Counted from the first letter of the stretch, positions 2,881-23,475 are shown. The stretch is 26,940 bases of DNA from a virus (IMGVR_UViG_3300036943_000417:1-26940), one strand, 5' to 3'. Numbers and translations: made by a program. The notes: generated by a model from the sequence alone, not told the origin.

Positions 2881-4182
2881 ATGCCGACTTTACCGCAGTT
2901 ACAGCAGTTTCAAGTCCCAAATTACGCAGCGGACCTTCTCACTAAGCAGACCACGGCCCAGCTCGCACAGACAGCCCGGCAGAAGGTGCAAAACGAAGCC
3001 GCCCTCGAGATGCAAAAGCTGGGCTTGAGGAACCGCGAGATTGGAGTCTCGGAGGGGAGACTGGGGCTGGATATCCAGAAGCAGCAGGCTGAAGTCGCCA
3101 AGCTCCAACGGGAACAGGCAATCGACGCCAACGAGTTCGCGCTCAACCTCCTGACGGGGGTCAACTCCGAGGAGGACCTCTCGATTGCCAAACGTCAGTT
3201 TCTCTCCCGTTACCCGGAGCACCTCCAGATGGTGAATCAAGTCCTCCCGTCTTATACCCCGACTTCAGTCCGCCTTATCCGCAACTCGCTACGGGACGAG
3301 ACCACACGCCTGAAGCAAGAGGAGCTCGCCTTCTCCCAGGCGATGGACGTCGGGAGATTCGGGCTGGAGAGGAGAGAGCAACAGCTCGACGAGCGGAAGC
3401 AGACCTTCGAGGAGACGAGGCCGAGGGGCTACGCTCCCGGAACCCTCATCAAGACTCCAGGGGGGACGGATCAGCAAGTTCCCACGGCTCCACCCAAACC
3501 CGACTTCGAACTCTTCACGGATTCGGAGGGGAACCAGGCGTATCTCGCAAAGGGCGCAAGTGTCCCGTCGGGATGGACCCGCGTGGATAAGCGTACCGGT
3601 CCTGCCGTCAACGTGTATACGGGGGACTTGGCCCGCACGACTCGCACCAAGGTGGAGTCCGAGATCATCGAGGGGGTGAAGAATGTCCAGTCCTTCCGCA
3701 AGACGGGGGAGATGTTCAAGGATGAGTACCTGGAGGTAATGGGTAAAGGGAAAAAGAAGGCGGCTGAGATTATGGACAAGGCCGGAGTCTCGACGGAAGA
3801 TCAGAGGAAGTACATCAACGAGTACGCCCAGTGGTTCCGCCAGGCCAAGTCCGACTTCCTTGCCTACCGTAAGTGGGTGACGGGTGTCGCGGGAGGGGAG
3901 AAGGAGATGCAAGAGATTGCCACTGCCTTCCCCGATCCGGTGAACAACAGTCCCGAGCAGTACAAGGCGAACCTGAAGTCAATCGAGGAGACGACGAAGC
4001 GGGTACTCCAGCTGAATGCAGACTTCCTCCGCCTCGGGATCGACATGGACCAGCCTCTATCCGTTGTGCTGGAGCAGGCGAAGGAGAAGGGGTTTGACCA
4101 GTTGCCACCCGGAACCCCCCAGGTCATCCGCTACACCCGTGACGCCAACGGAAATCTTGTTCGAGAGGAGGAGGTCAGATGA
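2881..4182 (+). CDS. Second DNA ejection protein (gp20-like position)
   Basis: AAGGAGG RBS, Gln/Ala-rich helical N-terminus, synteny between the gp7-like and the large ejection gene. Confidence 0.65.
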   Translation: MPTLPQLQQFQVPNYAADLLTKQTTAQLAQTARQKVQNEAALEMQKLGLRNREIGVSEGRLGLDIQKQQAEVAKLQREQAIDANEFALNLLTGVNSEEDLSIAKRQFLSRYPEHLQMVNQVLPSYTPTSVRLIRNSLRDETTRLKQEELAFSQAMDVGRFGLERREQQLDERKQTFEETRPRGYAPGTLIKTPGGTDQQVPTAPPKPDFELFTDSEGNQAYLAKGASVPSGWTRVDKRTGPAVNVYTGDLARTTRTKVESEIIEGVKNVQSFRKTGEMFKDEYLEVMGKGKKKAAEIMDKAGVSTEDQRKYINEYAQWFRQAKSDFLAYRKWVTGVAGGEKEMQEIATAFPDPVNNSPEQYKANLKSIEETTKRVLQLNADFLRLGIDMDQPLSVVLEQAKEKGFDQLPPGTPQVIRYTRDANGNLVREEEVR

Positions 4183-4220
4183 TGGAGCGAATGGGACCAC
4201 GAGAGGAGGAGGTCAGATGA
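4162..4220 (+). repeat. 21-bp direct repeat CGAGAGGAGGAGGTCAGATGA (4162-4182, 4200-4220) creating 13-aa mini-ORF 4179-4220
   Basis: Exact repeat of RBS+ATGA. Mini-ORF MMERMGPREEEVR overlaps the upstream stop and the downstream start by ATGA. Confidence 0.9.
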
Positions 4221-6589
4221 AGAAGGTAGTAGGTCCAGAGGGTCAGGAGTTTGAGTTCCCGGATGACGTAACGCAAGAGGAGATAGACTCCGTGGTCCAG
4301 CGGGAGCTTGGGTCTCAAGACGCGGGCGGAATCCCCGACCCCACCTTTGGGGGGCCTGGCTCCGTAGCCGCTCTTGACCCCGCTTCTGCAGCTCAGACCG
4401 AGAAGGGGGCCTCGATGGGGAGGGCAATCGCACTCGAAGCTCCACAGACTCTCGGAGGGGTAGCGGGGGGCCTGACCGCAGCCACCGGCCTGACCGCCGG
4501 TGGTCCCGTTCTTCTCCCGCTCGCAGTGGGTGCCGGCGTTGGAGGAGCTTTCGGGGAGTCCATGAAGCAAATCGGACAGCACCTCTCGGGTTCGCTCGAC
4601 GCACCCGCGACGTCAACGGAAGCGGCCAAACGGATAGGGGAGGCGGCTTTAACCGAAGCGGGGTTCGAGATGGTTGGGGGGTTGGTCGCGAAGGGATTCG
4701 GGAAGATCCTCGCCCCGTTTCGCAAGGAGACGATCCCTGGCCTCGCGACAGCCTCGAAACGGTTCGAGGATCAGATTAAGCCAGTCCTCCTCCCCTCCGA
4801 GGCCACCGAGTCTCGAGTCTTGGATATCCTCGGGAACATTAGCGAGTCGAGCCTCATCGGGGGAAACGCGATAGCCAAATTCAAGACCAAACGGGGGGAA
4901 TTCTTCGACGATTTCGCGGACAGTATGATTGACCAATTCGGGCAACGGGTAAGCCCGGACGAGTTGGGGTCTCTGTTCGTCACGGCACTCGAAGCGAAAC
5001 GGAAAGTCCACAAGGAAGCGGCAGACGTGCTGTACAATAACGTGCAGGCCCTCATCCCTCCCGACGAGATAGTGAAGCGGACTGAAGTGAAGCTGGTCCC
5101 CACGGGCATCGCCGACGAGTATGGGAATCCGATAACGAGGACGGTTGAGAAGGAAGTGGAGGAGGTAATCCCGGGCTTCCGCATCCCCACCCGTAGCCTG
5201 CGCGACTTCTCGTCCAAGGTCCGCGTGCATTCCACGGAGCTCGGGGGAATAGAGGCGAAGAACGCGGGGGACGACCTGATGGATGCGATCAATGGGTTAC
5301 CCGAGGGACTTTCCTTCCAGGAGGCGAAAGAGTTACGCTCGCGACTCATCAGTCGAATCGATGAGTTCAGCGTCATAAACAAGAAGGCTCCGGCAATCGG
5401 GAAGGCGAAAAAGCTCGTAAGCCTGTTGGACAAGCAGATGGCAGACTCACTTCGGGGACTGAAGGCTCCGGGGGTGCGGGCCGCTAGTGGAGAAAATAAA
5501 CTATATCATGGAACCAACAAGACTCTCAAGTCCGGCAAGGATATGGACAAGGGACATAGAGGGTACTTCTTAACTGAAGACCCAAAGGTAGCATCCAAAT
5601 TCGGCTCCAACGTGTATGAGGCTTCAGTAGACGGACTGAAAACCTTCGACGCCCGAGACCCCGAACACTTGAATAGATTCTTGGATGAGTGGAACAGGAA
5701 AGGGTATACGTATTACAGAAATCCGAAGATGCTTGCAGAGACCGGAAATCATGCCTTCTACGAAGACTGGAAGGTTAAGGCTACCCTGGAAGACCTGGGG
5801 TACAACGCTAATTGGCAACTGGAGGATAAGGCAAATACGATAAGGGTTTTTAGTAGAAAATCTATTAAGGAGTTTAAGAAGCCCACACCCGCCACCCCCC
5901 AGCAGACTCCCTACGAAGCCTGGCGCATCGCGAATCGCTTCTACCGCGAGGGCCAGGAGAAGTACAACAACACACTCCTTCGTCGCCTCGTGAAGCTCGC
6001 GGATGACACGGGTACTGGAGCGGAGAACATAGCCCCCGCAATCTTCAAGCCGGGCCAAGTCTCCAAGGTCCGCAAGGTGAAGCGCGCTCTCGGGGAAGGG
6101 TCGGACGAGTGGCGCAACCTGAAGGGCTTCTTCATCCAACATCTGCTCTCCAAGTCAACCGACGTGAACGGGAACCTGGTCGGCAAGCGCATCATCAACA
6201 ACATGAGCGGAAAACCTAACTCGTTTGGTATGCCAGTCCTCACTGAAGTCTTCACCGGGCCGCAGATTCGTGCGCTGGAGGATTTCGGCCGCGTGCTCCA
6301 AGCGACTCAAGCCAGCCAGGGAGAGGGAGCAGGCCGCATGCTCATTCAGCTTGCGCAGGGTACTGCCGTGGGCCGCATCCTACTCGCGGGGGCCATCGAA
6401 CCGGCAACCGCCACTGTCATCCTCGGACCTCCCCTCCTCTCCAAGATGATGCTCAACCCGAAGACCGCAAAACTTTTGACTGAGGGAATCAGCACCCCCG
6501 CCGGGTCCGAGGCCGCGGCCGGTCTCCTCTCGCGCATCGTTGCCGCATCCGAGAGAGTAAAGGAGCGAACCAGGGGGGAGGGGGAATAA
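4217..6589 (+). CDS. Large DNA ejection protein (gp16-like position) with internal ART-like domain
   Basis: Start ATG 4217 after GGAGG. N-terminal V.GPEGQEFEFPDD.T.EEI motif, Gly/Ala-rich membrane-like segment, helical body. Internal YHGT...GYFLTED..VAS.F segment at about 5485-5883. Confidence 0.75.
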   Translation: MKKVVGPEGQEFEFPDDVTQEEIDSVVQRELGSQDAGGIPDPTFGGPGSVAALDPASAAQTEKGASMGRAIALEAPQTLGGVAGGLTAATGLTAGGPVLLPLAVGAGVGGAFGESMKQIGQHLSGSLDAPATSTEAAKRIGEAALTEAGFEMVGGLVAKGFGKILAPFRKETIPGLATASKRFEDQIKPVLLPSEATESRVLDILGNISESSLIGGNAIAKFKTKRGEFFDDFADSMIDQFGQRVSPDELGSLFVTALEAKRKVHKEAADVLYNNVQALIPPDEIVKRTEVKLVPTGIADEYGNPITRTVEKEVEEVIPGFRIPTRSLRDFSSKVRVHSTELGGIEAKNAGDDLMDAINGLPEGLSFQEAKELRSRLISRIDEFSVINKKAPAIGKAKKLVSLLDKQMADSLRGLKAPGVRAASGENKLYHGTNKTLKSGKDMDKGHRGYFLTEDPKVASKFGSNVYEASVDGLKTFDARDPEHLNRFLDEWNRKGYTYYRNPKMLAETGNHAFYEDWKVKATLEDLGYNANWQLEDKANTIRVFSRKSIKEFKKPTPATPQQTPYEAWRIANRFYREGQEKYNNTLLRRLVKLADDTGTGAENIAPAIFKPGQVSKVRKVKRALGEGSDEWRNLKGFFIQHLLSKSTDVNGNLVGKRIINNMSGKPNSFGMPVLTEVFTGPQIRALEDFGRVLQATQASQGEGAGRMLIQLAQGTAVGRILLAGAIEPATATVILGPPLLSKMMLNPKTAKLLTEGISTPAGSEAAAGLLSRIVAASERVKERTRGEGE

Positions 6590-9108: not shown

Positions 9109-11763
9109 TTACCCCCCTATCCCTTTCATGCTTCCCCATTTGGTTCCCGCCTTGAAGTCAACCTCCATGAGTACTAACATCTTATCCTTGACAGCGTTTT
9201 GCATGGTATTCCTCGCTACGGGAATAAACTCTTCCACCACTTCTTCCTCCACTTGGTATACTATATCATCGTGGATCTGGATAAGGGGTAGGACCTTGCC
9301 ATTGAACCTTGAACTTCGATAGACCGGAACCAGATCTCCCATAGCCTGCTTGATCACTCCCTGGGCACCTGATTGTATTGGGTAGTTCCCCGCCTGCCGC
9401 TCCGCCTCGATTCGACTCCACCTGTTGGTTGACTTGATCCCCGGGATGTACCGAATTCGACCCCACATGTCGCGGACATACCCGTAACGCTTGGCGTATT
9501 CCCCGTTGGCCTTCATGTAGGCCGCAATCCCGTGGTAGATCTCGAACCAAGCCTTTATCATCTGACGGCAGTCGTCCAGCGAATGGATCGTGGAGCCCCC
9601 CGTCACCAGCTCCCTGTGCAACCCCTCAGCCGTTATGAGGTTCAGGATCCCGAATCCCACTCGTTTCGCGGGGTATCGATGCTTCTTCTCGTCGATTCGG
9701 GAGACGGGGATCCCAAACATCTCGCTGGCTGTGATCGAGTGTATGTCCTCTCCACCCCAGAAGATCTCCAGCATCTTCTCGTCCTTCGCTTCGCTTGCGG
9801 CCACTCTCATCTCAACTTGGCTGTAATCCCCACTGAGTAACACGCAACCCTCGGGGGCAACGTAGCAGTCCCGGACTCGACGGCCCTCAGCGGATCGGGT
9901 GGGTTGGGCCATCAGGTTGGGCTTGCTAGACGAAAGTCGCCCGGTCGCCACCCTCGTCATCCGGAGCGTCGTCCGGATTCGTCCGTCAGGGGAGATGAGC
10001 TTCGGAATCGCATCCGCGTAACTCGACTTCAGCTTCGCATACCCGCGCCAATCTATTATGTCCTGGACCACGGTATGAAGCGGGAGGTAACGCTTGAGTA
10101 TGTCATCCGCCGTGGATTTCGCGCCTCCCTTCTTAGCCTTGTGCATCCCGCCCTTCTCGTGTAGCTTGAGCCTGTCATAGATCAACTCGGACATCTGGGG
10201 GGCTGAATTTGGGTTGAGTGTCACCCCCGGCATGTGGTGGCCCACGTTCAACTGTATTTTCCGTTGAAGCAGGTCCATCCGCCCCTGCAACCAATTCCCC
10301 AACTCCAGCAGGGCATCCAAGTCCACCGGCATTCCGTTCGCCATCATGTCCACGACCATGGGCATGGCCCGCATGTCCCGCTGGAGAGTCCCGTCCAGGC
10401 CCAGAGCTTCGATTCGAGCCGCGAGAAGAGGGTAAACCCGAATCGTAGCATCAGCGTCCCGTGCAGAGTAGAAGATTGCCTCCTCCTCGTCAATGTCGCA
10501 CAGCTCCCCCTCCTGCATAGGACCGAGAAGCTCTTCCACCACTTCTTTTCCCTCTTTCACTGCCTTCCATGCATCCCACGGGTTTACGTTCTTCTCCTCC
10601 ACCCCCTTCAGGATGCGGGTGATCTTGCGTAGTATGTTCTGCGGCTGGCGGACGTGGGGTTCCCCCTTCTTCCACTCCAGGACTGGTTCCGGGTCGGGGT
10701 ACTCCAAGCCCGCTGCCACCTCCAGGTACTCCATAGCCTTCTCCAGCGTTGCACCCGCAACCATCTCCGAGTAGGACGCCATCTTCATCCCGCAGTGGCG
10801 GAAAGCTAGAGGCTTGAGTCCCTGGGGTTCGTTCTGCAGAAGGTAGGCCATAACCATAGTGTCCACGGGATTTGCGGGTTCGATCCCGACTTGGCGCAAG
10901 ACCGGGAGATCGTAGAGAGCGTTATGGATTACGGTCGTAACGTCTCGAGAGCCCAGGACGAGCTGAAGAGAGGCAAGCGAGGATGATTGGTCCGCCCCGA
11001 TCACCCAGGCTGTTCCAGGGGCTATCGAGAGGCTAAGACACCACATCTGGCCTCGCGCCCACTCCGTGTCCACGGCCACGACCAGCCTGCCAGGCACCAA
11101 ACCCTGCTCCTTGGCGTATAGCTGGATATGATCCGGGGAGAGGGGGAAGGTCGAGTGGTCTCCGATGACGTGGTAAGACTCGCGACCCTCATGATCGTCG
11201 GTTGGGGGGTAAGGGGCTATCTCCCCCTTCACCACCTTCCCCGCGAGCGCCATATCCGTATGGAACAGAATCATGGTCTCGGGGGAATGGAGTCCGGCTG
11301 CTGGATGGTACGTCGGGATGACGATCGTCTCGTGGCCCGCAACGGTTGCCGGGCGGGGGATTCCGTGAGTGAGTTCGACGTCGGTCGGGCCGAGGATCCA
11401 GCGGATGGCGGTCCGGCCCATAGCGATGATGAACTTGGGTTTCAGCCGTTTGATCTCGTTGGTGAGGTGACGGGAGGTGCACTCCTGGACTTCCGCTTCG
11501 GTTGGGGTGCGGTTCGCGGGCGGCTGGCAGCGGCAAACGTTATCGAGCCAGACTCCCTGGCGTGATATCCCGTTGAGGTCGAGGTGGTGGCGGGCCTCCT
11601 CCCCCGAGGATCCGATGAGCGGGCGACCCCACTTGTTCTCCTCCCAGCCCGGAGCCTCGGCGATGACCATGACGCGAGGATGGGGGACGGGGGTCGTGGA
11701 GTAGAACTCACCCGCTACGGGCTTCACGCCTCGGGCCGCGAGGGAGCATGCTTGACACTTCAT
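9109..11763 (-). CDS. polA: Family A DNA polymerase with N-terminal family-4 uracil-DNA glycosylase domain and 3'-5' exonuclease
   Basis: UDG: CxxC...AEAPG..E...GRP..G.SG...NVCRC.PP.NR.P...E...C...YHPAA. Exonuclease: VDTE, HNALYDL, DTM, YSARDA. Polymerase: TGRLSSSKPNL, motif A DYSQVEMR, motif B RYPAKRVGFGILNL, motif C QIHDD. Confidence 0.95.
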   Translation of the reverse strand: MKCQACSLAARGVKPVAGEFYSTTPVPHPRVMVIAEAPGWEENKWGRPLIGSSGEEARHHLDLNGISRQGVWLDNVCRCQPPANRTPTEAEVQECTSRHLTNEIKRLKPKFIIAMGRTAIRWILGPTDVELTHGIPRPATVAGHETIVIPTYHPAAGLHSPETMILFHTDMALAGKVVKGEIAPYPPTDDHEGRESYHVIGDHSTFPLSPDHIQLYAKEQGLVPGRLVVAVDTEWARGQMWCLSLSIAPGTAWVIGADQSSSLASLQLVLGSRDVTTVIHNALYDLPVLRQVGIEPANPVDTMVMAYLLQNEPQGLKPLAFRHCGMKMASYSEMVAGATLEKAMEYLEVAAGLEYPDPEPVLEWKKGEPHVRQPQNILRKITRILKGVEEKNVNPWDAWKAVKEGKEVVEELLGPMQEGELCDIDEEEAIFYSARDADATIRVYPLLAARIEALGLDGTLQRDMRAMPMVVDMMANGMPVDLDALLELGNWLQGRMDLLQRKIQLNVGHHMPGVTLNPNSAPQMSELIYDRLKLHEKGGMHKAKKGGAKSTADDILKRYLPLHTVVQDIIDWRGYAKLKSSYADAIPKLISPDGRIRTTLRMTRVATGRLSSSKPNLMAQPTRSAEGRRVRDCYVAPEGCVLLSGDYSQVEMRVAASEAKDEKMLEIFWGGEDIHSITASEMFGIPVSRIDEKKHRYPAKRVGFGILNLITAEGLHRELVTGGSTIHSLDDCRQMIKAWFEIYHGIAAYMKANGEYAKRYGYVRDMWGRIRYIPGIKSTNRWSRIEAERQAGNYPIQSGAQGVIKQAMGDLVPVYRSSRFNGKVLPLIQIHDDIVYQVEEEVVEEFIPVARNTMQNAVKDKMLVLMEVDFKAGTKWGSMKGIGG

Positions 11764-12122
11764 CGGTCCTCCCCATCCCGAATGGACTTGAACAACTCCA
11801 CTCTGGTCTCCCTGTCCTCTATGGGGTCTAGGTTCTTCATGGCTTCAGTGGCCCGACGCCAATTCTCCAGTTCCTCTTCGGTTTTACACGATATCACGTT
11901 GACTTTATACCCGGAGACGTCAAACGTATATCCCGTGTACTCTTCGACATCCGAGGTCAACTCCACTTCCGTTATGTGCCTGAGTATACCAAACATGTTT
12001 ACCGCCACAATCTCCGGGACTACGATATCGAAGTCCGAATCAGGTCTAGCGGGTCCATAAGCCCTGGTTCCAGTAAGAAATATACGCGGGCTATTATGTG
12101 CGATTTCCTCTGAGATTCTCAT
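11760..12122 (-). CDS. Minimal nucleotidyltransferase (Pol-beta superfamily)
   Basis: FLTGTRAYG.ARPDSDFDIVV (GS/T...DxD signature). Start 12122 after AAGGAGG. ATGA-coupled to the polymerase. Confidence 0.8.
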   Translation of the reverse strand: MRISEEIAHNSPRIFLTGTRAYGPARPDSDFDIVVPEIVAVNMFGILRHITEVELTSDVEEYTGYTFDVSGYKVNVISCKTEEELENWRRATEAMKNLDPIEDRETRVELFKSIRDGEDR

Positions 12123-12328
12123 CGGTCCTCCTTCGCCAAACCTGCGGCATTCAATCGCTCCACCCAACCTGCGGCATTCACGCGGTCCACAATCCCCTGA
12201 GCCAGCTCGTAATCCCGCAAGCTCACCTTAGTCTCGTCTCCCCTCTTCACCAGCCACAGATCGCACGTGCACGGTTTTCGCCCGCAGGTGCACTCTGCCA
12301 GCTCAACGCTCCATAGTGTGTCTTCCAT
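12119..12328 (-). CDS. Hypothetical small Cys-containing protein
   Basis: AAAGGAGG RBS, CTCGRKPCTC motif, ATGA overlap with the downstream gene. Confidence 0.6.
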   Translation of the reverse strand: MEDTLWSVELAECTCGRKPCTCDLWLVKRGDETKVSLRDYELAQGIVDRVNAAGWVERLNAAGLAKEDR

Positions 12329-12361: not shown

Positions 12362-12571
12362 CTACTTGTGCCGCCACACCCGCATCAATTCGTTCTCGTT
12401 TCCCGTCCAATCCTGGAGCCTGCAGCCAGTTGGGAAGCGATAATCGTCGTTCATCCCCCCGACCTCACACTTGCTCCAGAACGGGCACTCACTGCAATTC
12501 TTAATTGTGACGTAATAACGCTTCGTCCGATCCGTCTGCTCCAGCGGGTTGAGGTTGACGCCTAATCCCAT
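12362..12571 (-). CDS. Hypothetical small Cys-rich protein
   Basis: I.NCSECPF..C...FPTGC.L.D pattern; overlaps the end of the HD gene. Confidence 0.6.
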   Translation of the reverse strand: MGLGVNLNPLEQTDRTKRYYVTIKNCSECPFWSKCEVGGMNDDYRFPTGCRLQDWTGNENELMRVWRHK

Positions 12572-13110
12572 AGCTTTATCCCCTTATAGTAGTTTGTTAG
12601 TTTCGCCTTCGTCCAGGCCCGAAGCCTATCGTGGAAACGGTACAAGTTTAACCAGGTCCGGCGCTCGCCGGGAACGTGGATCTCGTACATGGGGTTCTCC
12701 AGGTATTCCCAACCCTCCTCGCTAAGCCACGCGAGGGTAGCCCAGAGCCAAGAGGGGTAGGAGGCGGTCGCGGCCTTATCCACCCAACAGAAGGTGGAGG
12801 GTGCGAGGTTCATCCGCCGGGCAAAGAAGCGGGAGTGGCAAAGGACCTCCTCGTACCACCACTGGCTACGGGTTAAGCGATAGACCAGGTTGGCACCGAA
12901 GATGGAGTGCTGGTCGCCACAAGGTCCGTCCATGGTTCGGCAGCCCCAATAACCCCAATCATGCACAATAGCCGCGAGGATGCGACCGGGGAGGGATGGA
13001 GGCTTGGAGTCGGGATACGGGTAAAACTTAGACCACACCCTCAATACGAAAAAGGGGTGGATGGCGAATTGGTGGCAGCCGAAAAGCAGCGAGCGAGTTC
13101 CGAGTTTCAT
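12562..13110 (-). CDS. HD-domain phosphohydrolase-like protein
   Basis: H(QFAI)H...IVHDWGY...H...H(SR)...WVDK metal-ligand pattern. Start 13110 with AAGGAG RBS and ATGA overlap. Confidence 0.65.
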   Translation of the reverse strand: MKLGTRSLLFGCHQFAIHPFFVLRVWSKFYPYPDSKPPSLPGRILAAIVHDWGYWGCRTMDGPCGDQHSIFGANLVYRLTRSQWWYEEVLCHSRFFARRMNLAPSTFCWVDKAATASYPSWLWATLAWLSEEGWEYLENPMYEIHVPGERRTWLNLYRFHDRLRAWTKAKLTNYYKGIKLWD

Positions 13111-13718
13111 GAGTTCTCCTTTATTTCCTTTATGATCGCCTCGTTCCACCAGTCAGCCCATGCCTGGGCACGGGCGCCTTCAAGATGCACATTCCCAGCT
13201 GCAAGGTATCGCCTGTCTTTTTCAGAGTTGTCTACATGACGCCCCCAAAAACGAAAACGAACTTCGTTGAAGCTATTTATAAACCAGTACTGAGTTCCAT
13301 CCTTTGGTGCCTCAACCTCCGGCCTTGGCAACTCCACACCGCCGATGTTGATTGTCGGGTGTTCCTGTTGTTCTGTCTTTTTAATCTGCTCTGTAAAAAC
13401 CCATACCTTTCGTCCGGCTGGATACTTGTTGTTATTTGATTCGAGCAACAAAACCTCAACTGCCTCTCCCGATTGTTCCACCACAACTGCTCTCAGCGGT
13501 ATAGCAAAGCGAAATCTATCATAAACCAAAACGGTTTGCCCGGCCTGGAACGGGGGTTCTTTGCGGTGGTATTCAGCATATTCTATCCAGTTTGGCTGTC
13601 TGTCTAAAGCTTTCCAATGGTCCGCAGAATTCCATTTGAATTCCCACAACTCCCAAGGCCGTTCATAATTCTTGCAATCTTCCTCATACTGCTTTTTCAG
13701 TTCTTCGTGTGCCATCAC
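13107..13718 (-). CDS. Conserved-type phage hypothetical protein (AT-rich, apparently chimeric)
   Basis: Y.ED....PWELWE...P.W...Y.RK and TINIGGVE.P.P...P..G..Y...D...L..G.VH motifs flank an extra beta-rich segment. Lower GC than its neighbours. Confidence 0.7.
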   Translation of the reverse strand: MMAHEELKKQYEEDCKNYERPWELWEFKWNSADHWKALDRQPNWIEYAEYHRKEPPFQAGQTVLVYDRFRFAIPLRAVVVEQSGEAVEVLLLESNNNKYPAGRKVWVFTEQIKKTEQQEHPTINIGGVELPRPEVEAPKDGTQYWFINSFNEVRFRFWGRHVDNSEKDRRYLAAGNVHLEGARAQAWADWWNEAIIKEIKENS

Positions 13719-15462: not shown

Positions 15463-16194
15463 TTACATCCACGCGCTAGGGTCCACGTTTGGCAGAACGT
15501 TCATCGCCAGCATGGGGAAACTGCAGCTATCACCCTCCAAGACCTCTCCGGCCAAATCCGGGTTCTGTCTGCAGTCTTTCACCCAAAGGCAGAATTCTCC
15601 GCCAGACTCGGGGTCATACCGGTATACTTGAGCGTTCACTTGGACCAGAAACCCCATATCGGAGAAGCCCGCGCGCTCCCACTCCCCCGTCCTCTTGTCG
15701 TTGATGTATTGAGCCTTCATCTTGTGTAGTAGGATTAGGTTCTTGTCCCACTTGTACGCCTCGCGGATGAGGGCGCGGAATTCGGCGTTGACGGGTCCGT
15801 ACTGGTAGGGCATAACCTGCGTCAGTCTCCCGAACCTCGCCATCCTCAGGAGCTCCCAGATCTCCGTTGCCGTGTCCACCACGATCGAGCGAACCTCAGA
15901 GCCCTTCATCAGGTCGAGGTAGGCGGACTTGAATCGGTCCCACTCCGCCGGAGCCTCCTCCGCCGCATCCTCATCGATTCGCGCGACATCCTTCACCCAC
16001 ACTTCCTTCTCCTTTTCGAACTTCTCCGTCACTCCCTCCTCCCCGATATCTGTCGAGAAAAGGGCGACGGGTCCTGGAGCCGTGAGGGCGAAGTGTGTCT
16101 TTCCCTGCTTCTCCAGGCCGGCAACCGAAACGATAATCCGGTCATGGGACTCCCGATCCTGGGAGCGCGTGAAGTTATGCTTCTTGAGTGTCAT
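15463..16194 (-). CDS. AAA/RecA-like ATPase (AAA_24 / Sak4-like)
   Basis: Walker A GLEKQGKT, Walker B IVVDT, NLILLH; near a PD-(D/E)XK nuclease and an SSB-like gene. Confidence 0.8.
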   Translation of the reverse strand: MTLKKHNFTRSQDRESHDRIIVSVAGLEKQGKTHFALTAPGPVALFSTDIGEEGVTEKFEKEKEVWVKDVARIDEDAAEEAPAEWDRFKSAYLDLMKGSEVRSIVVDTATEIWELLRMARFGRLTQVMPYQYGPVNAEFRALIREAYKWDKNLILLHKMKAQYINDKRTGEWERAGFSDMGFLVQVNAQVYRYDPESGGEFCLWVKDCRQNPDLAGEVLEGDSCSFPMLAMNVLPNVDPSAWM

Positions 16195-16894
16195 TTTCCC
16201 GTCCTTCCTCCCTAACTATTTCCTGCCCCAAAATTACAGATGGGTCTACCTGAACCAGTAATCCGGTCAGAACACCCGCCCGGTATTTCTCGTTAGACTC
16301 TATAACCTCGTTCCAGTGTATACCCCCAATAAGCCTGGATATAACTCCCGCGTAAGAGTTAAGGGTTATGTTGTATCCTTTCCTGTAGTACTTCAGGACT
16401 CTAAGGGCTGACCCTCCTGCATCCTCGTTCCGCTGAGGGTAGGTGTATGACAGTCGTCGGGCTGCAAGATCCTGGTAGTAGTCTGGGTGAACCAACCCAC
16501 ACCACTCATGCGGGGATCCAACCTTGGGGTTGCACCAGAGAACGGCACAGGCGATCGTGAAGTCAAAACTGCCCAATACCTCCTTTGGGTGGGGATACAT
16601 CCACCTGGTGATCACCTGAATCGGATAGGGCTTAGATATAATGGTTAACGCGTTTTTGGTCTTTACGGTCTTCTTCGTAACTATGCTAAGTAGCTCCACC
16701 ACTTTGTCCTTCGTCCTGTCCGAGTCCACGAATAAGTCTATGTCATTTATACTGTCCCCCGTGATACAGCTTCGAATGAAACCACCCCCAATACAGACTT
16801 TGGGGCCTAATTCCTCCATCATATGGACTACTTCCTTGGGTATATGGCGCTTACACCACAGTATGTCTTCCTGTCTCATCTGCTCCTTTCTCAT
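16175..16894 (-). CDS. Nucleotidyltransferase, CCA/poly(A)-polymerase head-like
   Basis: IGGGFIRS.I.....NDIDLF, SFDFTI and R..KY..KGY motifs; AAGGAGGT RBS. Confidence 0.8.
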   Translation of the reverse strand: MRKEQMRQEDILWCKRHIPKEVVHMMEELGPKVCIGGGFIRSCITGDSINDIDLFVDSDRTKDKVVELLSIVTKKTVKTKNALTIISKPYPIQVITRWMYPHPKEVLGSFDFTIACAVLWCNPKVGSPHEWCGLVHPDYYQDLAARRLSYTYPQRNEDAGGSALRVLKYYRKGYNITLNSYAGVISRLIGGIHWNEVIESNEKYRAGVLTGLLVQVDPSVILGQEIVREEGRENDTQEA

Positions 16895-21063: not shown

Positions 21064-21415
21064 AATTACTCCTTTGGGGGTTACCCCCGGCTTCAGGGTC
21101 CAGGGTCCAGGGTCCAGGGTCCAGACCCAATTCCCCCGAGCTCCATCCCGTCTCCAGGTTCAACTCCAGATAACCCCGCCTGTTGTGTCCCGCACAATGG
21201 GGTTACCCTCGAAACGCGCGAAGCTTTTTTCTGGACGTGGTTCTTGGGAAAAGGAAACGGTCAACGCACAACGCACACCGTCAAGACAACACAGAAAATG
21301 AAGCTACCAAGAACGGAAAAGAACGAGGAGAGGCGGGATTATGTTGCCCGCCGGGGTTTCCCGCCTGGGGTTTCCCGCCTGGGATCCCCCGCCTCGACCA
21401 GAAAGGAGAGATTAT
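21064..21415. promoter_or_regulatory. Divergent intergenic control region with repeats
   Basis: Non-coding gap between divergent genes. Contains CAGGGTC x4 (21094-21121), GGGGTTTCCCGCCT x2 plus a degenerate third copy (21353-21394) and GGGTTACCC motifs. No clear sigma70 consensus identified. Confidence 0.55.
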
Positions 21416-21805
21416 ATGTGGGCTGAGCTGGAGAAGGCAAAGGCAGAGGTGAGGCGAGAGAGAAGTGGGACTAAACGCTCTCAACTCTTGCGTCGGATTA
21501 AGAGGCTCCAGGGGTTGATGGAGCGTGGGGTCGTGCGGGAGAACCCAACCCCCCAACCCAGACAGCGGGACGTGGATTGCGGTCTTACCCTTCCCCGCAC
21601 CAAACTCCACGCCATAGACCAGCGGCTCGACCATCAACTCTCGGATCGTATCGAGCGACAGAGACTCCAGAGGCGCAAAGCCAAACTGAAACGAGAAATT
21701 GCCGGGCGCGACCCCAAATGGTTTGCGGGTGACGGGCCTCGGTTTGAGGTTAAACGAAAGACCATACAGATTCTGGACGAACTGGAATCGAAGGAGGACC
21801 AATGA
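21416..21805 (+). CDS. Hypothetical Arg/Lys-rich protein, first gene of purZ cassette
   Basis: AAAGGAG RBS before ATG 21416; helical and highly basic. Confidence 0.6.
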   Translation: MWAELEKAKAEVRRERSGTKRSQLLRRIKRLQGLMERGVVRENPTPQPRQRDVDCGLTLPRTKLHAIDQRLDHQLSDRIERQRLQRRKAKLKREIAGRDPKWFAGDGPRFEVKRKTIQILDELESKEDQ

Positions 21806-21881: not shown

Positions 21882-23006
21882 ATGCAACAAGGGAAATTAA
21901 ACATCGTATTCGGGGGTCAGGCAGGATCGGAGGCCAAGGGGAAGCTCTCGGGGTTTCTGGCCGACCGTTACCCCCTCGACCTGCTCGTGATGACTGCCAG
22001 CCCCAACGCTGGTCACACCATCGTGACGCCTGGGGGAGAAAAGAGGGTGAGCTACCACCTTCCCGTCGCCAGCATCATGTGCGACTGTCCCATAGTCCTC
22101 ACGGCCGCGAGTTTGATAAACGTGAGGTCGTTTGAGGCTGAGCTGGAGTCCCTGGGACTTGATCCCCATCGCATCCTGGTGGACCCTCGCGCATCCATTA
22201 TCCACGAGCACCACATCGGACTGGAAGAGGACGGCGGGCTTTCCGACATCGGGTCCACACTCCAGGGGATCGGGGCCTGCCGGCGCTCGAAGATGGAGCG
22301 GAGGGGAAGGGGACATCACACGCTGGCGGGTCATATCCGCGACGTGTTCAAGGTTATGGGGGTGAGGGTTATGACCTCCCCCTCCTCAATCCTGGTGAAC
22401 TCCCTGTTGGACAAGGGGGCCATGGTCCTATGCGAATCGACTCAGGGGTTCGACCTCGACCTGGAGCACGGAATCGATCCCGTGTATTGTACGTCAAAGA
22501 TGGTCAACCCGTCGATGATCGCGGCTGAAGCTGGGGTTGCCCCGCAACTCGTGGGAGATACGTTCGCCGTCCTGCGCCCTTACCCGATACGCGTGAACAA
22601 TCGGACCGGAACGAGCGGCCCGTATGCCGAAGCCCGCGAGATTACCTGGGATGACGTTCGCTTCCGGTGCGGCTGCCCGGAACCCCTGGAGGAGCTGACG
22701 ACGACCACAAAGCTCCCGCGTCGCGTCTTTGAGTTTTCCTGGGAACGCTTCCAGCACATGATCCGCGTCTGTCGCCCTACCCATCTCGCGCTCCAGTTCG
22801 CCAATTACCTCGACTGGTCCTGCTTTGAGACTTCCGCCGGACCGGACCAGCCTTTAGCCTTCCCCCCTTCCGTCTCCCTCTTCATTCAGCGGCTGGAGAC
22901 CTCCGGGGTCCCCGTCTCTTTCGTCGGAACCGGACCTGGCCACGAACACATGATCTGGCGGACCAATGCCCGCGAGCTGATGGAAAGGAGGCGTAATGGG
23001 TACTGA
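21882..23006 (+). CDS. purZ: PurZ, N6-succino-2-amino-2'-deoxyadenylate synthase (PurA paralogue)
   Basis: GGQAGSEAKGK (Ser at the PurA catalytic Asp13 position), PNAGHT, GSTLQG, TQG, YCTS, R.YPIRV..SGP, TTTTKLPRRVFEFS (Leu at PurA Arg303), QFAN (in place of PurA TKLD), GTGP. Short 374-aa form with GGAGG RBS. Confidence 0.88.
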   Translation: MQQGKLNIVFGGQAGSEAKGKLSGFLADRYPLDLLVMTASPNAGHTIVTPGGEKRVSYHLPVASIMCDCPIVLTAASLINVRSFEAELESLGLDPHRILVDPRASIIHEHHIGLEEDGGLSDIGSTLQGIGACRRSKMERRGRGHHTLAGHIRDVFKVMGVRVMTSPSSILVNSLLDKGAMVLCESTQGFDLDLEHGIDPVYCTSKMVNPSMIAAEAGVAPQLVGDTFAVLRPYPIRVNNRTGTSGPYAEAREITWDDVRFRCGCPEPLEELTTTTKLPRRVFEFSWERFQHMIRVCRPTHLALQFANYLDWSCFETSAGPDQPLAFPPSVSLFIQRLETSGVPVSFVGTGPGHEHMIWRTNARELMERRRNGY

Positions 23007-23475
23007 TCTCCCCCCTCTGCCGCCCGAAATGGTAAAGCTTGGTCCGAGACCCCCTGGTTCGAGGCCCCCCGATCCGGGGCTCTCTGGTCCCAACACCAAA
23101 CCTGCAGGCCACCAATGCGACTGTCCCCTCTGCCGTGAGATGAGACGGGAGTGGAATCTCCCCCTCCCCAACGACCCCAAGACTCCACTCGCGGACATGA
23201 TTTCCGACTTCCACCTCGCGCTCCAGTCCGTCGCCCGTGTGACCGCTATGGGAGTGGAGAAGCACGGACCCCTCGGGGGCTGGCGTAAGGTCCCCGGCTT
23301 CAAGCGAGACTATCAGAACAAGAAAGCCCGGCATGCAATCTCGGGCCTGGTGGACGACGGGGGGTTGGATGAGGAGAGCGGGCTTCCGCATCTGGCGCAT
23401 GAAGCTTGGAACGCTCTCGCGCTTCTCCAGTTCGCGCTCGAGTCGGAGGCACGGGTCGATAGTGGCCAGCCGTAG
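22996..23475 (+). CDS. DUF5664-type dATP/dGTP diphosphohydrolase domain protein
   Basis: AL..VA.V...G.EKHG...W..V......Y.....RH...D.ESGLPHLAH.AWNALALL. AAAGGAGG RBS; overlaps the purZ end. Pro-rich and CxCxxC N-terminal extension. Confidence 0.8.
   Translation: MGTDLPPLPPEMVKLGPRPPGSRPPDPGLSGPNTKPAGHQCDCPLCREMRREWNLPLPNDPKTPLADMISDFHLALQSVARVTAMGVEKHGPLGGWRKVPGFKRDYQNKKARHAISGLVDDGGLDEESGLPHLAHEAWNALALLQFALESEARVDSGQP

Follow-up and report, generated by a model that had tools for sequence, protein, structure and literature searches.

A phage that carries purZ encodes a family A DNA polymerase in which asparagine replaces Tyr766 (Klenow numbering), and among related UDG–exonuclease–PolA fusions (the UDG-PolA family) Asn or Thr at this position goes with purZ. 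We consider it fairly probable that the Tyr766-to-Asn change is an adaptation to Z-containing DNA, favoring Z:T over A:T pairs. Judging from sequence, UDG-PolA is likely an independently evolved Z-favoring polymerase, with a predicted selectivity for dZTP. The literature searched, outside which most subscription papers lie, held no description of the family, of a natural Y766N, or of a link between Y766A and Z.

The window, i.e., the whole stretch of DNA analyzed, measures 26.9 kb and is part of a podovirus-like phage genome, as indicated by matches to head-closure, ejection and tail-fiber proteins. The motif B site (9631–9681) reads from the minus strand, inside the UDG-PolA gene, whose features are the following:

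9109–11763, minus strand: uninterrupted ORF of 884 aa, the UDG–exonuclease–PolA fusion; the sole DNA polymerase seen in the window
11284–11685, minus strand: N-terminal UDG-superfamily domain, residues 27–160 (PF03167, E 6e-23)
Same ORF: 3'-5' exonuclease domain, residues 228–329, and PolA domain, residues 485–877
9811–9828, minus strand: motif A, with canonical residues at the catalytic (D646) and steric-gate (E651) positions
9640–9642, minus strand: Asn708, codon AAC, equivalent to Klenow Tyr766 at the O-helix end; the purZ-tracking position
9637–9639, minus strand: Leu709, codon CTC, equivalent to Klenow Gly767; relaxed family-wide and, alone, not tracking purZ
9652–9678, minus strand: rest of motif B, with R696, K700, G703 (N761G, family-wide) and F704 (Phe762 type)
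9265–9273, minus strand: motif C, His-Asp-Asp; the catalytic HD is kept and the third residue is Asp family-wide

Motif B aligned with the Klenow fragment without gaps, pairing R696 with R754, K700 with K758, G703 with N761, F704 with F762, N708 with Y766 and L709 with G767, while motif C reads QIHDD against QVHDE in Klenow. This alignment bears out the substitutions N761G, Y766N and G767L, and the HDD motif C, that the first-pass annotation had listed. Its statement that motif A and the exonuclease motifs are intact holds as well, the exonuclease residues D232, E234, D285 and D436 being present along with D646 and E651. The protein is a PolA by profile (PF00476, E 1e-91), by the Klenow alignment and by fold (Foldseek TMt 0.86): in an AlphaFold model of the protein alone, without DNA or dNTP (pLDDT 91), the O helix ends at residue 707, and the top fold match is the Klenow fragment. 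Asn708 thus occupies the place of a tyrosine described as universally conserved in family A polymerases (PMC3715850).

The substitution is common among relatives. In the query plus its 120 best homologues (n = 121), the residue pair at 766–767 was NL in 62, YG in 23, ND in 15, YM in 10 and YL in 4, with seven singletons; Asn stood at 766 in 82. Since G761 (119 of 121) and HDD (113 of 121) occur in Tyr-bearing homologues too, they are family traits. A further 134 representatives of 50% clusters had mostly Tyr at 766 (102), then Thr (16), Asn (7), Met (3) and Phe (2), four being unaligned at this position. The Asn site was also covered by contigs of four out of four public oil-field runs (24 runs were listed); these are assembled contigs, not raw reads. 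Within 9634–9679 they held five variant positions, all synonymous, one of them lying in the Asn codon itself (AAC/AAT). Because the NL motif is shared by many relatives and recurs in independent contigs and in those of the four runs, and because the catalytic residues are intact, we ruled out an assembly error, an option of the first-pass annotation, or a dead gene; the chance of either is practically nil.

The phage collection contained no cultured family member (best identities 26–35%), and four genome-bin matches, only one with a named taxon, gave no usable host. Intein-like insertions were seen in one PurZ (L030:13384–14976) and in several motifs of family polymerases (P0056, P0059, P0091, P0109).

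The genes of the window that bear on Z metabolism are these:

21882–23006, plus strand: purZ-type homologue of adenylosuccinate synthetase, bearing the PurZ signature Ser (best PDB match phiVC8 PurZ, E 3e-32; profile E 1e-61)
22996–23475, plus strand: homologue of DUF5664 dATP/dGTP diphosphohydrolases, overlapping the purZ end (PF18909, E 1e-14; phrog_801)
21341–21805, plus strand: uncharacterized ORF accompanying purZ in a common cassette, which lies on the strand opposite to the replication genes (synteny maps)
12562–13149, minus strand: HD-fold protein upstream of the polymerase, a candidate nucleotide phosphohydrolase (invariant H..HD..H..H..D)

When aligned with characterized PurZ and PurZ0 enzymes, to which it is about 30% identical, the purZ product showed S16 at the place of PurA Asp13 (S14 in phiVC8), a serine found in every one of 20 clade members. 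Among the PurZ-diagnostic residues taken from bioRxiv 2025.10.22.683976 and PMC12884076, phiVC8 T262, F295, Y298, W252, Y244 and P233 are matched by T273, F306, Y309, W256, Y248 and P235 (numbering mapped by hand from the alignment). At phiVC8 F12 and S273 the window protein has Ala and Glu, the former counting against a Z-adapted system; the PurZ of Bacillus phage vB_BpsS-140 departs at F12 as well. The product is a putative PurZ, which would make the precursor of dZMP from dGMP and aspartate.

As for the neighbors of purZ and polymerase, a PF18909 match was present in 14 of 21 purZ-positive vs 4 of 24 purZ-negative records, and the HD-protein gene in 7 of 21 vs 0 of 24. The DUF5664-family enzyme of Wayne hydrolyzes dATP and dGTP (PMC12884076). 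Considered as a possible orthologue of S-2L DatZ/YfbR, the HD protein had no Pfam match; it resembled HD/PDEase folds at Z scores up to 7.5, with DatZ at rank 42 (Z 5.4) among generic HD folds, all with Z below 8. A purZ-type gene with PurZ residues, accompanied by the DUF5664 gene and the HD ORF, makes it likely that the phage genome holds Z (ZTGC), and UDG-PolA is encoded with purZ, as expected of a functional DpoZ.

Some other genes of the window deserve mention. Two small ORFs of the replication block (11760–12167 and 16175–16894) are patchy among relatives; the second matches a nucleotidyltransferase PHROG and the first is similar by eye. A large putative ejection protein (4016–6589) weakly resembles ART-PolyVal (ADP-ribosyltransferase), at an E value of 7e-5 that does not reach the family cut-off, and a GNAT acetyltransferase with a short four-residue repeat lies among the virion genes (1190–1759).

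To compare residue 766 with purZ, IMG/VR virus records were gathered by polymerase, not by purZ, and the whole record was then searched for purZ. The search covered 46 of the 72 loci of a first set (the longer contigs), 28 new contigs of a second and 50 of the 158 loci of later sets (new contigs). Left out of the count were one chance non-polymerase match, four near-duplicates (one Phe with purZ, three Tyr without) and 13 PolAs outside the family (among them two Phe without purZ and one Tyr with an Asp-type PurA-like gene). There remained 107 records including the window (set at 65% complete), or 100 after deduplication at 95% identity.

In these 100 records purZ was found with Asn in 17 of 21 cases, with Thr in 10 of 11, with Phe in 3 of 7, with Met in 0 of 3 and with Tyr in 1 of 58. 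Restricting the count to records at least 50% complete (n = 63) gave 16 of 17 for Asn, 6 of 6 for Thr, 2 of 4 for Phe, 0 of 2 for Met and 1 of 34 for Tyr; at 70% or more (n = 39), the values were 13 of 13, 4 of 4, 2 of 2, 0 of 1 and 0 of 19, respectively, and at 90% or more all Asn (10 of 10) and Thr (2 of 2) records had purZ, as against 0 of 14 with Tyr. Every purZ match inspected had the signature Ser (six Thr-linked matches of the later record set lie outside that inspection). A second search of 43 negatives from the first two record sets with Pfam PF00709, which recovered five of five positive controls, returned one weak match, of the His type, in record G032.

Column 766 was the best purZ predictor of 833 alignment columns (p 4e-14, the next column reaching 1e-7; 72 rows, kinship ignored). 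By contrast, N761G, HDD and G767L were ruled out as Z markers, being common in purZ-less relatives too: G761 was seen in 22 purZ-less records, and 13 purZ-less Tyr766 records at least 50% complete have lost Gly767. The co-occurrence proposed in the first-pass annotation therefore survives for Asn766, which goes with purZ where Tyr does not, and fails for the rest of the motif set. The second-best purZ-linked column was that of Arg701 (Klenow 759; window 9661–9663), with Arg in 34 of 34 purZ rows and 18 of 38 others. The equivalent residue is Arg in Ghobes DpoZ and in the PolAs of G087, G088 and G090, and Gln in phiVC8-like DpoZ.

There were exceptions. One record, L020, has Tyr together with a somewhat divergent purZ. 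Phe occurred without purZ in L340 (55% complete) and L382 (63%), as did Met in L410 (79%, with terminal repeats) and L373. Among the Asn carriers, L413 (49%) and three short records had no purZ. Met766 in family members without purZ was seen in L410, L373 and L354, as well as in proteins P0201, P0233 and P0240.

Two PurA-like genes found with Tyr were examined as possible counter-examples. The weak match in G032 carries His in the signature position and is missing the aspartate-binding loop. It was scored purZ-negative; if scored positive, it would be a second Tyr-with-purZ record, at 54% completeness. Highly divergent PurA-like genes of this sort lie directly before the Tyr766 polymerase in L047:2976–4013, L048:8874–9911 (G032) and L145:872–1615. 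In these, His or Arg occupies the Asp/Ser signature position and the aspartate-binding loop is missing; they are neither known PurA nor PurZ. In G129 the PolA is of the non-UDG type, and the accompanying enzyme is Asp-type and adjoins MT-A70, therefore not a PurZ. That cluster (L517:4198–10578) comprises PolA, an MT-A70 methyltransferase, the Asp-type PurA-like enzyme, a nucleoside deoxyribosyltransferase and PrimPol, and is possibly another adenine-modification pathway.

This association could reflect shared ancestry of Asn766 and purZ in a few lineages, or else the loss of Tyr766 might answer modified DNA in general, rather than Z. On a careful (mixture-model) tree, 12 changes were needed for Tyr/non-Tyr and 13 for purZ. 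Seven independent pairs lay on well-supported branches, of which 4.7 agreed, 0 disagreed and 2.3 tied (median p 0.0625; the bootstrap was not fully settled); Asn-only pairs agreed in 3 of 4 (p 0.25). This ancestry-corrected test, not being significant, counts against the Z reading and speaks for common descent, and quick trees gave p 0.03–0.125, one of them with a median p of 0.03. Also in keeping with descent or a general response to modification are the Met and some Phe variants without purZ, and the ties of SPO1-like UDG-PolAs to modified pyrimidines (PMC10201439). Still, none of the pairs is discordant, and the state changed 12 times or more along the tree; purZ accompanies each of three different residues at 766 but shows no such tie to the neighboring position 767 (1.2 pairs agreeing, 0.2 opposite and 4.6 tied on the careful tree). 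Moreover, in five of the exceptional genomes, Pfam scans with partial coverage, spanning some 20 kb around the polymerase, turned up no common modification pathway. We consider an explanation by ancestry or by modification in general improbable.

The Asn carriers do not form one clade (AU p 2e-5; quick tree, columns 766–767 masked), and L298 (Thr, with purZ) is sister to L304 (Tyr, without purZ, 84% complete) with support 100/99. Synteny maps place the purZ cassette between two conserved genes in the window's clade; two Tyr-bearing sisters of that clade, L027 and L099, have both flanking genes with no cassette between them (in L099 the absence of purZ rests on synteny). Sequences with Tyr-Met or Tyr-Leu were nested among Asn-Leu ones on the unrooted trees, a hint that some Tyr states may be reversions rather than the source of a gain. 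With an ancestry-corrected p of about 0.06, coevolution of residue 766 and purZ is suggested rather than proven.

The UDG-PolA family formed a 100/99 clade on the careful tree that excluded both DpoZ groups and the SPO1/Serbin-type UDG-PolAs; SH-Ab 15497 and JSF33 fell outside it, as did Ghobes, a long branch and the single cultured representative used for its group. A cruder quick tree from a partial alignment placed Ghobes inside the family, and on it a union with the phiVC8 group was not rejected by an AU test (p 0.12). Identities of UDG-PolA to the DpoZs of SH-Ab 15497, JSF33 and Ghobes were 22–25%, lower than to bacterial Pol I (33%). The suggestion of an independent, non-DpoZ Z-polymerase in the first-pass annotation is thus upheld as regards its position outside both DpoZ clades and the Asn766–purZ link, though the signal lies in 766 alone and not in the motif set.

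Like UDG-PolA, the phiVC8-like DpoZs (PolA cluster 18; SH-Ab 15497, phiVC8, PDB 7PBK) are exonuclease-bearing family A enzymes of purZ genomes with Tyr766 replaced, and their partner PurZ likewise has the ATP-type motif F-x-N-Y. Unlike it, they are only 22–24% identical, form a separate clade, combine Phe766 with Leu762 (Asn708 and Phe704 in the window), and measure about 620 aa with no UDG domain; their Z selectivity has been measured, whereas the window enzyme is known from sequence. Wayne-like DpoZ (cluster 19; Gordonia phage Ghobes) shares a purZ-type genome, a replaced Tyr766 and an Arg after the motif B Lys, but is 25% identical, lies outside the family on the careful tree, has Phe766 and is partnered by PurZ0 with DutZ/DmtZ. 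The unclustered UDG-PolAs of SPO1-like YungSlug and Serratia phage Serbin have the same UDG–exonuclease–polymerase architecture, yet they are 28–30% identical, belong to a separate clade and keep the canonical Tyr-Gly; in Serbin, the polymerase neighbors are thymidylate synthase and a deaminase, not purZ.

Outside the family, too, PolAs of purZ genomes were without Tyr766: SH-Ab 15497, JSF33, Ghobes and G087 have Phe, G088 has Thr, and G090, with one of these two residues, likewise lacks the tyrosine. Both DpoZ clades have Phe at 766 in common and no other change (PMC8599892), which also speaks for an adaptation at this position. The G088 enzyme (L294:757–2607), akin to phiVC8-like DpoZ, carries Thr766 with Gln763 and adjoins purZ, being a second, independent case of Thr766. 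Two origins of DpoZ among NCBI viruses were described in a 2026 phylogeny (PMC12884076). According to a preprint, the UDG domain is associated with Z in Z-enriched metagenomes, for reasons not explained there; it also describes two new DpoZs, which could belong to the window's family.

The Z:T pair is like G:C, with three hydrogen bonds and a 2-amino group in the minor groove. In Klenow, Tyr766 and Glu710 together shape the pocket for the nascent pair, and the Kd2 of Y766A was 79 vs 0.83 μM for template A–dTTP and 42 μM for template T–dATP, while for template G–dCTP it was 0.11 vs 0.20 μM, with normal closing (PMC3715850, Table 1 for the paired values). T–dGTP and G–dTTP errors were raised in this mutant (PMC3715850). 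In simulations, when template G is mispaired, its amino group clashes with Tyr714 and hydrogen-bonds to Ser714 (PMC12756729). The laboratory mutants Klenow Y766A and Y766S and Bst Y714S therefore resemble the window enzyme in the residue removed and offer a precedent for discrimination against A:T pairs (PMC3715850); they differ in being engineered, with Ala or Ser and natural bases only, from a natural Asn accompanied by G761, R759 and L767.

A mutant that is poor on A:T and normal on template G provides a mechanism for favoring Z:T. Given the Klenow data and the likeness of Z:T to G:C, a small polar residue at 766 should penalize A:T and spare Z:T, though this extrapolates from natural-base assays of Ala and Ser mutants; the Klenow mutant has Ala where the window has Asn, and template C–dGTP lies outside the data used. 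In a genome that would be ZTGC, A:T pairs would then fail to drive finger closing for want of the tyrosine ring, while pairs bearing a purine 2-amino group (G:C and Z:T) would still do so, an effect to which the Asn amide may contribute by hydrogen-bonding to this amino group. Extra G:T errors would be corrected by the intact exonuclease, and dATP would at the same time be kept low by DUF5664 and perhaps by the HD protein.

What counts against adaptation to Z is that Y766F Klenow is near wild type (PMC3715850), and that the Phe common to the two DpoZ clades was judged unlikely to set Z/A selectivity by Czernecki et al. (PMC8599892, PMC10201439). The phiVC8 DpoZ structure paper identified no single determinant of Z preference (PMC8599892). 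In addition, S-2L is described as having Z throughout its genome without a selective polymerase (PMC10201439), and two purZ records 92–100% complete had no PolA match: L278 (G089, 92%) and L270 (G084, 100%), as in S-2L.

The polymerase might be permissive and not selective: with three hydrogen bonds in all pairs the tyrosine would be dispensable, Asn would be tolerated or would mildly speed Z:T, and dATP-destroying enzymes would exclude adenine. Such relaxation would account for the same purZ association; it agrees with the dispensability of a selective polymerase in S-2L, with the retention of Tyr beside purZ in L020, and with DUF5664 adjoining purZ and the HD protein adjoining the polymerase. 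From pure relaxation, however, many residues would be expected at 766, but Asn is fixed in 82 of the 121 near sequences and has persisted while its codon varied synonymously, another clade has Thr fixed instead, and the Klenow data predict a real A:T penalty without Tyr. We regard a permissive enzyme as a rather unlikely, though serious, alternative to selection for Z:T.

It is far less probable that this is a mutator polymerase, as the first-pass annotation had also proposed, in which the loss of Tyr766 raises errors and is kept for diversification. Y766A and Y766S are indeed mutators in Klenow (PMC3715850), and the support is limited to these laboratory mutants; the purZ link would go unexplained, the exonuclease residues are invariant, and the change is old, being conserved in homologues down to about 40% identity.

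Adaptation to Z thus remains our preferred reading. A bolder version of it, which we hold only tentatively, is that UDG-PolA constitutes a third, large Z-selective polymerase family, in which 766 switches repeatedly between Tyr and Asn or Thr with the gain and loss of purZ, and that 766 is the main Z-versus-A determinant in family A. If true, without Tyr the enzyme would accept only pairs that contain a purine 2-amino group, and one substitution would make Klenow or Taq Z-preferring. The family offers natural near-pairs, some 60–75% identical in the polymerase domain (59% for the window and L027), and because they differ at 766 and purZ, the Z/A question reduces to one point mutation. The results suggest further origins of Z-adapted polymerases, and the UDG-PolA family may account for the link of the UDG domain to the Z pathway in Z-enriched metagenomes.
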